The notes beneath the pieces were generated by a model. It was given only the letters and a program-made list of their open reading frames with translations. It was not told the origin of the DNA and ran no database searches. A program made the position numbers and the translations under genes. Of a stretch of 64,000 nt of DNA, positions 33,077 to 47,505 are shown one piece after another (positions within the stretch are counted from its first letter, which is position 1; the number at the start of each line of letters is the position of its first letter). The stretch lies in assembly GCA_016840405.1 (NCBI GenBank), contig JAEOSK010000011.1:2634-66633 (forward strand), given 5' to 3'. The DNA comes from Candidatus Hermodarchaeum yapensis. GTDB taxonomy: Archaea > Asgardarchaeota > Hermodarchaeia > Hermodarchaeales > Hermodarchaeaceae.

Positions 33077-33466
33077 CTATTTTCCTTCTTTGGATTTTGA
33101 TTTTTTCTCTGTCTTCTTATCTTTGGGCTTTGACTTCTCTTTCTTCTTCTTCGCCTTAGTCTTCGCCTTAGGCTTCGCTTTAGGCTTTGCCTTAGGCTTC
33201 TCTTCCTTCTTCTTCGCCTTAGGCTTCGCTTTAGGCTTTGCTTTCACTTTTTTCCTAGCCTTGGCAGCTTGAGCACGGCGACGAATCCGTTCTTCATACA
33301 CTTCTGTCCATTTGAGGCGGCGAGCTCTTCGTTTTAGATAGATTTCACTTCGACGACATTTACTTGAACAAAGATACAGGAGGCTACCATCACCCTTCAC
33401 GTAGATAGATCCGGTTCCGGGTTCGACATCTGTCCCACAGAATGAACAGGTGTATTTTTTGACCAT
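33077..33466 (-). CDS. rpl24e: Ribosomal protein L24e with K-rich tail of about 65 aa
   Basis: 'CSFCGTDVEPGTGSIYVKGDGSLLYLCSSKCRR'. The tail reads 'KARKKVKAKPKAKPKAKKKEEKPKAKPKAKPKAKTKAKKKKEKSKPKDKK...'. Confidence 0.9.
   Translation of the reverse strand: MVKKYTCSFCGTDVEPGTGSIYVKGDGSLLYLCSSKCRRSEIYLKRRARRLKWTEVYEERIRRRAQAAKARKKVKAKPKAKPKAKKKEEKPKAKPKAKPKAKTKAKKKKEKSKPKDKKTEKKSKSKEGK
33161..33241. repeat. Direct repeat inside the rpl24e tail
   Basis: The 30-mer cttcgccttaggcttcgctttaggctttgc occurs at 33161-33190 and again exactly at 33212-33241 (period 51 nt). It encodes (K/A)KPKAKPKAK. Confidence 0.85.
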
Positions 33467-33490
33467 TCATATTCCCATCCTTGTTGACGG

Positions 33491-33706
33491 TTAGGGCGTT
33501 CTTATCTTTCGAGCCTCGCGTTCTGTTTCACGGAGTAACAGGATGTCGCCTTCTCTGATTGGACCCTTCACATTGCGGGTGAGGATGCGACCTTGATCAC
33601 GCCCTTCTAGTACACGAACTCGCACTTGGATGATTTCTCCGGTGAGTCCAGTTCGACCTACGACTTGGACTACTTCAGATGGAATACCCGCGTCTTCTTG
33701 ACTCAT
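33491..33706 (-). CDS. rps28e: Ribosomal protein S28e
   Basis: '[56 protein letters not shown]'. Confidence 0.9.
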
Positions 33707-33730
33707 TTTTGGGTCACCAGTTCAGGTTCC

Positions 33731-34108
33731 CTATTTTTGTAGATCCTTTAGTTTCTTGGTTAGGTCATCGATGAGCCGTTGTGCTTCACCGGCTTCAATG
33801 ATGGCTGCAGAGGCAGAAGGGACATCAATGCCAAGTGCAGAACCAAGTTTGTTTTTGCTGGCAACGAAGATGTAAGGAATATTCTTTTCTTCACACATAA
33901 TTGGAAGATGAAAGATGATTTCTGGAGGATCTACATCTTCAGCGATGGCAACAAATTTTGCTATAACTCGTTCAACGGCTTTGGTTGTTTCGTTGGTTCC
34001 TTTACGGACCTTACCCGTATCACGAGCGACTTCAACTATCTCATATGCGATATCTTGCAGTTCTTTTGGCGCAGTAAATTTTACATGGGGTTTTGACAAC
34101 AAGAGCAC
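33731..34108 (-). CDS. rpl7ae: Ribosomal protein L7Ae (K-turn binding)
   Basis: '[50 protein letters not shown]'. The ORF-track start is GTG. A TTG 6-9 nt downstream of GAGGTG is equally possible. Confidence 0.9.
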
Positions 34109-34197
34109 CTCATTGCTTATTCATCGGGTCTTGTCGAGGCCAGCAGCCGATAATTATCGACCCGTGGCTGTGGCGACTGAGTAGCAATCGACACGGC

Positions 34198-44636: not shown

Positions 44637-44751
44637 GCCGCGGTAGCCAAGTGGTTTACGGCGCAGGCCTGGAAATTCTCGATTACTAAACGAGAACCAA
44701 TCAGCCTGTGACCCCTGGGTCGCACGGGTTCGAATCCCGTCCGCGGCGCCA
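44637..44751 (+). tRNA. tRNA-Ser (anticodon GGA) with a 28-nt canonical intron (44675-44702) and encoded CCA
   Basis: Acceptor GCCGCGG/CCGCGGC. D-loop with GG. Anticodon stem CAGGC/GCCTG, loop CT-GGA-A. Long variable arm GACC-CCTG-GGTC. T-arm ACGGG-TTCGAAT-CCCGT. The intron after position 37 forms a bulge-helix-bulge: central CTGG/CCAA, bulges AAA and TCA, inner helix TTCTCG/CGAGAA. Confidence 0.9.
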
Positions 44752-44791: not shown

Positions 44792-47467
44792 TTAGGATTT
44801 TCGTCGCCAAGCTGTCGGATATGTACCTGTAGACATAACTACTCTCGCCGTATCCGCAACTATTCCTGACTTAGCTTCTAGAACCTGTTTGGTTGCCATC
44901 AGCGCAGTCGCTAACGCGACCAATTCACCTTTTTGGGTCATGAGGGCGACGGAGTCACCCGGTTTGATATCTGCATGTAATTGTAACACTCCAATTACAG
45001 CAAGATTTGCGCCATGACAGATAGCATTAACAGCAGAATCACGTATGATGATCTGCGCAAGATGTTGAACTCCCTCTTCAAGAGGACGAATATAACGGCG
45101 AAGGAGACGGTCTTCCTTATCTTCCTGCCAAAAATGAAAAGCATCAACCAAATCATAGAGCGAGATAAAATTAGCATCTTCTTTAAAGGGTCCAGTGCGT
45201 GTGCGACGGAGTTCAGCCATATGCGCTCCACCGCCAAGAACCTCACCGATATCGTAACAATTACTTACAAAAGCAGCACCATTCAATGCAAAATTATGAA
45301 AGTGATCTACTGTGATATCATAGACATAACCAAAATCCGGAATTGTTTTCTTAATCGTTTTGATTTTTTCCAGAAAATAATTCGCCCCTATTTGTCTTTG
45401 TAATTCTATTAAGTCAGAATCGTCTTTAGGTATTAAAGCAAGTAAAGATTTTACCAATCTTGACAAAAGGCGTCTTGTTGGTCTTTGACCAGATAGGAGT
45501 CTATTAAATGCTCCTCCCCTGTATATTGAATTTAGTGATAACCCATATTTCTGAATTATATTTTTAATATGTGCTACACAGGAGAGAGGCATTAAGTCTT
45601 GAGATCCATATGAGGTGTATCGTGAAAACTGTGTATCAAATTGCTCAAGCTTTTTCATCTTTTGTGGATGTTTGCATTTCATTAATTGGGAAAAGCGAAT
45701 CTTATCAAAAGGCGATTTAAGTACTACATGATACTTCAGGACTGAATCACTCTTATCGAACGTTGGTGACAAGCTCTCATATATCTTTGAACGAATTCCA
45801 AGGCGTTTTAGTAGTAGAAATATTTGCACTGCAACATGTTTGTAAGCCGTTTCATATGCGATTTGTGTATAAGGTGAATTTGTTTTAATGCTAACTGTGC
45901 CATCGCCATCAAAATATCCCGATAAGAAACTGGAAATAAGATTTTTTGAAAGCGAAGAAAGATTTTCTAAATGCATGGTTTTCTTTGGGCTAGTAATTCC
46001 TAATTTTTTCGCTATCCCTGCAAGTACTGGGTTGTTGACCGTTACAATAACAGTCCTAGATATCTTAGTTTGAGTAATTTTGCTTGACGGGAATAACCGA
46101 TTCACAATTGAAATAAATGTTTCAATAAGTTCGATTTCTGTGTTTGTGAAAATAACTCTTGTAGGTCGAACGCATTTCTTTTCCTGCACTATACTGCCAT
46201 CAGACGCTACCAATCCTAGCAAATAGAGAAGTTCTGAATTAAGTTTTTTATCAGTGATTGCGTAATACGCACCTCTCTCTCCTTTGAAGGCTTCAGTCAA
46301 TTCGCATACTGAAAACCAATCTAACTCAGTTTCTTCACAAACCTGACGGAGATATTTAATTCGGATGCCCCTTTCTGGTTGGAGAAAGATTCGACGATCT
46401 ATTCCCAAAATTCGACAGGCTTTGGTTAGACTCCCATATGACCTTGAAAGGGATTTTTTACATTGTTTTTTCAGTTCGTTTCCAAAGCAAAGGAAATCAG
46501 AATCTAGTAACTCGATAAGATATGGAATTTTATCAGATTTTAGAATTAATTCGCGAGGACTAAAAACAAAGTTTCCTGGAACGACATCTTTTGCATCTAT
46601 CAATAATGGTCCATTGATATCGTCTATTAGTATTTCATGGTCAGGCGTAACGAAGAGGGTAATACCCGAATCGAGTTCGAGTTCAACCATCTCAGAAGGG
46701 GCAGGTAATCTTTGGATTCCGGTTATTGAAGAAGATACAACTTTGTGTTCGTTAAGACTCAAAGAGACCGTCTCTAAGGTTTTCAAATTAAATTGATTGG
46801 AATTGGTAACACCTAGGCTTGAGTCAATGATATCAGAGATTTGATGGAGTCCTCCATTTTGTAAAAAGAGGAATGAGGAAGGAGCAACACATAGTTTTCG
46901 AATATAGGTGCCCGCTTGACAGCCAACTTGAAAGAGCACGTCTTGCCCGTCGATTTCTAGTATATCTAAATAGTAAATCTGTCTTGTGCGGAGTCGTCGT
47001 TTGACGGAAGAGCGGAGGGGAGGACGTTGATAGATGGTTCCGACAAATTCTGCGGCAGCCTTTCGAATGTTATCTTTGGATTCTTGTTGATGGAGTCGCA
47101 GAATGCAAACATATTCTTTGCCAGCTTTTAGCAGAACATTGGCAATTTTCGTAGCGTTTCCTAACATGACAGGTAATACACCGGTTACCTTTGGATCCAA
47201 TGTTCCGGAATGCCCTGCGCGATTAAGGCTTAGGATTCGCTTAACCCAAGATACCACTTCATGGCTGGTGGGTCCTGGAGGTTTTTCTGGGCCTGTAAAG
47301 GGTTATTGACCCCTTCAGAACAAGCTATCCAGATTGATTATACCATTCTGAAATAATTCAGGAATGGTTCGCGTTCCAGGGACACGACCATAGGTGGGAT
47401 TTGTAGTATCTTCGGCGCGCGTTACCATTTTCCGCTGTTTGTCGGCAGGTAGCCGCGGTTTTGTCAC
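44792..47467 (-). CDS. cbf5: tRNA/rRNA pseudouridine synthase Cbf5 (TruB family, PUA domain), interrupted by a 42-nt intron-like insert and an intein
   Basis: Exon 1 (47467..47327, GTG start 9 nt after GGAGG) encodes 'TKPRLPADKQRKMVTRAEDTTNPTYGRVPGTRTIPELFQNGIINLD'. Exon 2 begins 'KPPGPTSHEVVSWVKRILSLNRAGHSGTLDP...GTYIRKL', then the intein, then 'CYDIGEVLGGGAHMAELRRTRTGPF' and the PUA region. The conceptual mature protein is 333 aa. Confidence 0.85.
45260..46891 (-). mobile_element. Intein (544 aa) with LAGLIDADG homing endonuclease domain inside cbf5
   Basis: It starts 'CVAPSSFLFL' (Cys1, TGT 46891-46889), has block B 'TPDH', two LAGLIDADG motifs 'LLYLLGLVASDGS' and 'FLSGYFDGDGT', and ends 'VYDITVDHFHNFALNGAAFVSN' followed by +1 Cys (45259-45257). 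The flanks rejoin to 'GTYIRKL-CYDIGEVLG', the conserved Cbf5 core. Confidence 0.85.
47285..47326 (-). other. Candidate bulge-helix-bulge-type pre-mRNA intron in cbf5 (42 nt)
   Basis: The in-frame insert AGCTTGTTCTGAAGGGGTCAATAACCCTTTACAGGCCCAGAA (minus strand) carries TGA and TAA between '...GIINLD' and 'KPPGPTSHEV...'. Exon CUGG pairs with intron-3' CCAG. A 3-nt bulge AUA lies at the 5' site. Inner helices are GCUUGU/ACAGGC and GAAGGG/CCCUUU. The 3' site lies in the A-run after CCAG. Confidence 0.65.
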
Positions 47468-47505
47468 GTCCGATGACCTCCTCTGCCCCTAAGGGCGAGT
47501 CGGTA

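Follow-up and report, generated by a model that had tools for sequence, protein, structure and literature searches.

The gene cbf5, which encodes the H/ACA pseudouridine synthase, is the textbook archaeal host of a pre-mRNA intron; to our knowledge, no other protein-coding gene of archaea has yet been proven to have an endonuclease-spliced intron. Splicing of its transcript by EndA, the tRNA-splicing endonuclease, has been demonstrated in Crenarchaeota (PMC2738675), and the classical intron of the crenarchaeal and other TACK genes (Watanabe 2002; Yoshinari 2006; Yokobori 2009, PMC2738675) is a short element of 16–44 nt that splits the codon of the catalytic Asp. Here we analyse a cbf5 gene in 64,000 nt of DNA from the Asgard archaeon Candidatus Hermodarchaeum yapensis (contig JAEOSK010000011.1; this whole stretch is referred to as the window). 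The gene appears to carry a 42-nt intron at a different codon, together with a 1632-nt intein, so that its product would depend on both RNA splicing and protein splicing.

Genes that contain both kinds of element have been described outside the archaea. The ribonucleotide reductase gene of Trichodesmium has four inteins as well as three group II introns (Liu, Yang and Meng 2003), ThyX is another gene with both kinds of element (Liu and Yang 2004), and the two cases are cited in PMC4143802; phage ribonucleotide reductase genes with both inteins and self-splicing introns are also on record (PMC3653736). As in these cases, one essential gene would need RNA and protein splicing. The introns of the bacterial and phage genes, however, are self-splicing group I or group II ribozymes and are often mobile, whereas the archaeal intron described here is of the bulge-helix-bulge (BHB) type and is predicted to depend on protein enzymes. 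The first-pass annotation of the window had called the stacking of two intervening elements in one core gene unusual; the arrangement itself is real, but the combination of intein and intron in a single gene is thus not without precedent.

The cbf5 gene and its predicted product

The cbf5 gene occupies 47467..44792 on the minus strand and has two interruptions. A Shine-Dalgarno-like sequence, GAGGAGGT, can be read 5' of its GTG start (47476..47483, minus strand), and a GAGGAGG motif is found in the same place in L153, L157 and other relatives. Exon 1 (47327..47467, minus strand) comprises 47 codons that encode the DKCLD N-terminal segment and end in GIINLD, a peptide kept in 16 relatives. It is followed by the 42-nt element AGCUUGUUCUGAAGGGGUCAAUAACCCUUUACAGGCCCAGAA (47285..47326, minus strand), which separates the Asp47 codon GAT from the Lys48 codon AAA and which we classify as a relaxed BHB intron of the HBh' type from its fold, covariation, length variation and covariance-model match. 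The N-extein part of exon 2 (46892..47284, minus strand) runs from K48 to L178 and contains motif I (KPPGPTSHEV), the catalytic Asp77 in GTLDP, and GTYIRKL. Between GTYIRKL and CYDIGEVL lie the 1632 nt of the intein (45260..46891, minus strand; 544 aa, CVAPSS...AAFVSN), with Cys as the next residue; it includes a LAGLIDADG homing endonuclease domain (LLGLVASDG, LSGYFDGDG). The C-extein part of exon 2 (44792..45259, minus strand) encodes C179 to S333, with the TruB_C_2 and PUA domains, and ends in a TAA stop.

Conventional reading of this region gives a very different picture. The open reading frame (ORF) list holds a 50-aa ORF at 47315..47467 (minus strand), which terminates in GIINLDSLF before a stop, and an 821-aa ORF at 44792..47257 (minus strand), a fusion of Cbf5 with the insert that starts mechanically at VVSWVKRIL. 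Translation of 47467..44792 in frame 1 passes from exon 1 into 14 codons with two stops (SLF-stop-RGQ-stop-PFTGPE) and continues as KPPGPTSHEVVSWVKRIL... The warning in the first-pass annotation that naive ORF calling would mislead has proved apt, as the public record of the window ORF (P0149) is the 821-aa fusion.

Removal of both elements yields a 333-aa protein in which the DKCLD, TruB_N, TruB_C_2 and PUA domains are all present (Pfam), the DKCLD match covering residues 10–58. This protein matches the Cbf5 equivalog NF003280 with 465 bits (cutoff 242) over profile positions 2–321 of 323, and TIGR00425 with 445 bits (cutoff 238); its catalytic Asp is present as GTLD77P. Its alignment with Pyrococcus abyssi Cbf5 (2AUS) is gapless over both junctions, the aligned segments reading gVINLDKPPGPTSHEVV and AGTYIRsLihhIG..GAHMAELRR. 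At the RNA level, the end of exon 1, ...AAUCUGGAU, is predicted to be joined to the start of exon 2, AAACCUCC..., giving the exon-junction peptide INLD-KPPGPTSHEVVSWVK. The ligated extein junction peptide is TYIRKLCYDIGEVL, as given in the first-pass annotation, and the extein-ligated peptide predicted for spliced Cbf5 is LCYDIGEVLGGGAHMAELR. Within the 64-kb window, tblastn found no second cbf5-like sequence.

We consider it about 85% probable, from comparative sequence evidence, that this is a single cbf5 gene with two unrelated interruptions, one removed from the RNA by EndA and a ligase, the other then removed from the protein by self-excision. The pre-mRNA would fold so that CUGG of exon 1 pairs with CCAG of the intron, leaving an A-U/A bulge (here and below, a slash within a bulge or boundary marks the splice site) and a closing helix GCUUG(U)/(A)CAGGC. 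EndA would cut 3' of the second nucleotide in each bulge, and an RtcB-type RNA ligase would join ...GAU to AAA..., producing INLD-KPPGP in frame. Translation of the spliced mRNA would give an 877-aa precursor, from which the intein would excise itself by means of Cys1, the block B Thr and His, its terminal Asn and the +1 residue Cys179. Ligation of the exteins between Leu178 and Cys179 would then release the 333-aa Cbf5 together with a free LAGLIDADG homing endonuclease, which may be able to copy the intein into intein-free alleles. If the RNA were not spliced, only the 50-aa peptide or an N-terminally truncated fusion could be made; if the protein were not spliced, the TruB fold would be split beside the GTYIR motif, which we take to be part of the TruB-family active site. 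The earlier proposal that Cbf5 synthesis needs both processes is supported by the comparative tests that follow.

The 42-nt intron

The identification of the 42-nt element as an intron, first made from the window alone, is borne out by its distribution over 17 sequences, its variation in length, its covariation and its cleavage geometry. An insert is found at the identical codon boundary in 17 distinct sequences of a Hermodarchaeota-like Asgard clade, with the boundary consensus CUGGAY/AG...CCAGAR/AARCC; the repetition of the same arrangement in independent assemblies means that it is not due to chance. As all 17 sequences carry it, the intron is, at the level of sequence, fixed within this clade. 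Its length is 38, 40, 41, 42 or 43 nt, and the frame of exon 2 matches the intron length modulo 3. Because changes in length shift the frame of exon 2, read-through is impossible in most members of the clade; in the window it is stopped by the two in-frame stop codons.

The nearest Cbf5 homologues (68–95% identity) are nearly all ∼277–281 aa long and have no DKCLD domain, which is the signature of a missed first exon; a few of them are partial, at 250–310 aa. More distant homologues (≤69% identity, including one from a Hermodarchaeota metagenome-assembled genome, MAG) are full length. In the loci that were read, a small DKCLD ORF lies directly 5' of the truncated cbf5. The ten codons 3' of the intron encode KPPGPTSHEV in 17/17 sequences, and the 10 variable sites within these codons are all third codon positions. 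No start codon precedes this motif in frame in 14 of 16 loci. A peptide that is invariant and yet start-less can be translated only when it is joined to exon 1, and in Cbf5 proteins from intron-less genes (P0003, 2AUS) INLD-KPPGP is contiguous.

The structure around the splice sites is equally conserved. A central helix of 4 bp, H, is formed by exon-1 CUGG and CCAG at the 3' end of the intron; a 3-nt unpaired bulge, A-U-A, follows CUGG at the 5' splice site, and after the bulge comes a second helix, h', GCUUG(U)/(A)CAGGC, leading into a variable hairpin. H, the bulge and h' are kept in all 17 sequences. In an alignment of 15 sequences, 98.5% of the cells of H and h' are paired and 4 of the 9 pairs have changed on both sides. 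The covariation score of these helices was reached by 0 of 500 shuffles, and when pairing partners were slid by 1–3 columns only 11–53% of cells remained paired. The central helix of L153 has changed from CUGG/CCAG to CUAG/CUAG by way of a synonymous Leu codon. Unguided RNAalifold on the 17 sequences recovers the same H, bulge and h' structure, as do single-sequence minimum free energy (MFE) folds in 13 of 17 cases, and a covariance model of the Asgard intron matches the window at 47273..47338 (minus strand) with 83 bits.

The cuts in archaeal introns, those of cbf5 included, fall after the second of the three residues of a bulge (PMC2738675). When this rule is applied to the 5' bulge A-U/A and to the A-A/A triplet just 3' of the intron strand of H, GAU is joined to AAA, giving INLD-KPPGP, and this is the sole junction that restores that sequence in frame. 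Within the same 47273..47338 segment, exon-1 CUGGA is also able to pair with UCCAG in the Pro-Pro-Gly codons of exon 2; such a pairing could compete with formation of the BHB, or it could be meaningless.

The Asgard intron and the classical cbf5 intron share their host gene and a number of properties. [quoted passage not shown] They differ in position, sequence and host. The classical intron, a feature of TACK archaea, splits the catalytic Asp codon (GA/C of GTLD-P) and has CCCU/GGGG helices with AGA bulges, whereas the intron of the Asgard lineage represented by the window lies between D47 and K48, 30 codons upstream of D77, and combines CUGG/CCAG with the bulges AUA and AAA; the two sequences are unrelated. 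This difference in site had been missed when the intron was first noted. In the window GTLDPKVTG is contiguous, with no insertion at the classical site. Conversely, five loci that have the classical intron (L031, L038, L045, L058 and L062, with GGGACCCUAGA before it and CCC after it within GTL-D-P) all have a contiguous INLDKPPGP.

The covariance model of the Asgard intron scores 82–83 bits on the window, L001 and L002, and not more than 17 bits elsewhere in 98 sources that include TACK, DPANN, euryarchaeal and other Asgard cbf5 loci; the weak matches include 24-nt stretches at the uninterrupted cbf5 junction. We considered homology between the two introns, or 'sliding' of one to the site of the other, and rejected both, given the distance of 30 codons, the unrelated helices and bulges and the failure of the covariance model to match. 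Since they have no position or sequence in common, the simplest reading of the sequences is that the Asgard intron was gained independently of the TACK intron. The classical intron itself has been described from Desulfurococcales and Sulfolobales (PMC2738675); here, it lies ∼200–260 nt into the cbf5 matches from Sulfolobaceae, Bathyarchaeia, Methanomethylicia and Nitrososphaerota-labelled loci, and the labels of the five loci named above imply a wider spread than that described.

The intein

The intein call has likewise been confirmed, by profile matches above their cutoffs, by 19 conserved homologues and by precise intein-free alleles. The window intein scores 55.0 with Intein_splicing (Pfam; cutoff 35.8), 68.0 with LAGLIDADG_3 (Pfam; cutoff 22.5) and 27.4 with TIGR01445 (cutoff 24.5), and the closest solved structure is the PI-PfuI intein endonuclease (PDB 1DQ3; E = 3.5e-5). 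All 19 homologues reside in Cbf5 at the same site, GTY(I/V)RKL/C, and all 19 conserve Cys1, T-P-D-H (block B), VYD.TV..HNF, S-N at the C-terminal end and Cys at +1. Both LAGLIDADG motifs of the window intein keep their acidic residue (LGLVASDG, SGYFDGDG). In P0124, P0128 and P0136, these motifs are degenerate (SNG, a 2-residue deletion and DGGG) and the splicing blocks are intact, the kind of endonuclease decay that is expected late in a homing cycle. Rfam also gave a snoRNA-like match within the intein, sn2524, whose 27.5 bits fall short of the cutoff of 44; it was taken to be due to chance.

Like PI-PfuI and other LAGLIDADG inteins of archaeal housekeeping genes, the Cbf5 intein has the Hint splicing blocks and two LAGLIDADG motifs, is inserted in a conserved catalytic-core motif and varies in presence among close relatives; it differs from them in its host, Cbf5, in its distant relationship and in having Ser before the terminal Asn. 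Its closest relatives outside Cbf5 are in P0137, P0138, P0139 and P0143; the host proteins are NuoB (P0138, with the label Aenigmarchaeota, and P0139), an SRP54-like GTPase and, from Bathyarchaeia, a hydrogenase Fe-S subunit. The open-access literature searched yielded no description of an intein in Cbf5, and nothing relevant on inteins in TruB or pseudouridine synthases.

A comparative survey of cbf5 loci, of the kind suggested in the first-pass annotation, set the two elements apart: the intron is in all 17 clade sequences and the intein only in some. L157 and L158 carry both, with introns of 42 and 41 nt, whereas L001, L002 and L072, whose exteins are 89–91% identical to that of the window, have the intron and no intein. 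These three read RKL-V-YDIGEVL, without a gap at the insertion site, where the intein-free allele has the sequence ...CGAAAATTAGTCTACGATATC... Among the homologues listed for the clade, ∼25 clusters are intein-free and 8 are intein-bearing. From these sequences the intein is a present/absent polymorphism in the clade and is not fixed. The +1 Cys might have been brought in by co-conversion during homing; we do not adopt this explanation, which is unproven, as intein-free members of the clade variously have Cys, Val, Thr or Ile there.

Identity to the window intein falls into groups, at 92/85%, 74/73% and 46–48%, despite extein identities of 74–95%, which suggests long residence of the intein with some transfer between lineages. 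The GC content of the intein is 35.9%, against 46.4% in the extein. The same intein allele is present in MAGs labelled Methanosarcinales (L059–L061), Woesearchaeota (P0142) and Thermoproteota (L159, without the intron). A further set of Cbf5 ORFs of 777–794 aa (P0130–P0136) has the intein at the same RKL/C site within exteins ∼55% identical to that of the window; their first residues, 'MTGVLPV...' or 'LKPLKGWGNPPVTGVLP', coincide precisely with the 3' edge of the classical intron in the Asp codon (compare L045, ∼2800–2860). The classical cbf5 intron and this intein are thus probably combined in a TACK-like lineage, which would be a second, independent double-splicing arrangement.

Alternative readings, neighbourhood and significance

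Some features of the locus weigh against double splicing. An outer exon–exon helix that would close the 3' splice site was sought and none was found; U6-A57 is the only possible outer pair at this site, and it has no covariation. With AA/A at the 3' site and no outer helix, the element is therefore of the relaxed HBh' form and not the canonical hBHBh' form. The MFE folds of L065, L068 and L075 pair exon-1 CUGGA with exon-2 UCCAG, and that of L074 lacks the H/h' structure for other reasons. In the intein, the terminal Asn is preceded by Ser and not by His, in the window and in all 19 homologues; a penultimate His is common but not obligatory, and inteins without it are known to splice. With regard to the relaxed intron, most crenarchaeal cbf5 introns are likewise unconventional BHB elements (PMC2738675), the Asgard EndA has been reported as an (alpha-beta)2 enzyme with an L1 loop, which is associated with broad specificity (PMC5829648), and (alpha-beta)2 EndA accepts BHB elements of relaxed form as substrates (PMC5829648, PMC2738675).

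None of the rival explanations fits all four of the following findings: a helix-bulge-helix that covaries, a motif I that is invariant yet start-less, ORFs that are intact and splice residues that are conserved. Were cbf5 a split gene, whose DKCLD segment and remainder (from the GTG at VVSWVKR) assemble non-covalently, the 42 nt would be a mere spacer. Gene callers do give exactly these two ORFs in many assemblies, and in 15 of 16 loci exon 2 has its first in-frame start codon only after 27–30 nt. It is those same 27–30 nt, though, that encode the invariant KPPGPTSHE with only synonymous variation and, in 14 of 16 loci, without an in-frame start codon upstream, and a spacer would not be expected to keep a covarying helix-bulge-helix that predicts an in-frame junction; we regard a split gene as very unlikely. 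Translational recoding, by ribosomal bypass or frameshifting over the 38–43 nt in the manner of T4 gene 60, would account for a stable hairpin directly after the stop-containing stretch and for a length near the 50-nt gap of gene 60. But the codon for take-off (GAU or GAC) differs from that for landing (AAA or AAG), what has been conserved has the features of an EndA substrate (a 4-bp helix and a 3-nt bulge, the cleavage points lying 3' of the bulge's second nucleotide), and cbf5 is a proven EndA target in Crenarchaeota (PMC2738675), all of which leaves recoding with very little to recommend it.

The remaining rivals concern the gene as a whole and the intein. That cbf5 is a decaying pseudogene, killed by two insertions and replaced by another copy or by Pus10, might be suspected from the two interruptions and from a view limited to one 64-kb window. 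However, the three coding pieces are open and conserved over the clade down to ∼68% identity, the exon-2 leader has changed by synonymous substitutions only, the splice residues of the intein are intact, L14e, cmk, S13 and S4 remain syntenic with the gene, and the window holds no second copy; such decay is scarcely credible. It is also very unlikely that the intein is retained or splices poorly, so that the enzyme works with a 544-aa domain inside it or is largely inactive. The penultimate Ser would fit this, but 19 homologues from several archaeal phyla keep Cys1, TPDH, VYDITV..HNF, the Asn at the end and Cys at +1, and the insertion falls directly after GTYIR, a motif conserved between the window Cbf5 and P. 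abyssi Cbf5.

The surroundings of the gene agree with the earlier description. An intron-containing tRNA-Ser adjoins cbf5, as had been noted: tRNA-Ser(GGA) at 44637..44748 on the plus strand, convergent with cbf5 and 43 nt from its stop, is supported by its fold and by Rfam RF00005 (49.8 bits), and has an intron of ∼28 nt at position 37/38 (∼44675..44702). ARAGORN reported no tRNA in the window, a result that was discarded since Rfam found this one. The central BHB helix of the tRNA also has CUGG (anticodon loop CUGGAA, compare CUGGAU in cbf5 exon 1), which is probably a coincidence. Such archaeal tRNA introns resemble the cbf5 element in presumed enzymes, in a central CUGG/CCA helix and in size; they differ in that the cbf5 element stands in a coding frame, has no tRNA body and lacks an outer helix at the 3' site. 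L7Ae, a subunit of H/ACA and C/D ribonucleoproteins, is in the window, as had also been stated (33731..34120, minus strand; recognized by a motif in the ORF); it lies 10.7 kb from cbf5 and serves as context only. It belongs to an apparent L7Ae–S28e–L24e cluster (33077..34120, minus strand), in which L7Ae was assigned by motif and S28e and L24e by ORF size, position and N-termini. The ORF list also suggests an archaeal ribosomal-protein supercluster at positions ∼51–60 kb of the window. The window and its relatives have a common gene order, SecY–adenylate kinase–EMC3-like–cmk–L14e–cbf5–S13–S4–S11–RpoD, and the nearest cbf5 loci are from MAGs labelled Promethearchaeota, Odinarchaeota or Hermodarchaeota. 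A 1.7-kb contig in a 'Patescibacteria group bacterium' bin (L064, JBBTTI010000021.1) holds an archaeal Cbf5 fragment 60% identical to that of the window, and is probably a binning contamination.

Throughout the clade, public records give Cbf5 wrongly: truncated to ∼277–281 aa (P0001, P0002, P0008 and others), as an 821-aa fusion or as a 'LAGLIDADG family homing endonuclease', the only name given to a cluster mate from 'Candidatus Hermodarchaeota archaeon' (P0146, MDO8122884.1). As a consequence, a core gene of ribosome biogenesis seems to be damaged or missing when completeness or phylogeny is assessed from genomes. No paper linking Asgard archaea, Cbf5 and an intron was found in the open-access literature searched, which is not proof of novelty. 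As far as that literature shows, the second independent intron site in cbf5, the Asgard occurrence and the stacking of a Cbf5 intein with an intron would all be new.

If the analysis is correct, endonuclease/ligase-type mRNA splicing would extend to the Asgard archaea, which of all prokaryotes stand nearest to eukaryotes; the splicing of HAC1 and XBP1 mRNA in eukaryotes relies on the same ligase chemistry. A second independent intron site also makes the question 'why cbf5?' testable by comparison. A speculative answer, which we think rather unlikely, is that the intron, acquired by cbf5 on at least two occasions and at codons that differ between TACK and Asgard archaea, is selected for and is not neutral, acting as a throttle or switch, with the intein layered on top in Asgard archaea and probably in one TACK group. 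As a throttle, the intron would tie the output of the rRNA and tRNA pseudouridine synthase to the RNA-processing capacity of EndA and RtcB; alternatively, the competing exon-1/exon-2 helix would act as the switch. With a fixed intron and a polymorphic intein in one gene, the clade would offer a natural experiment on the tolerance of the host for stacked elements.

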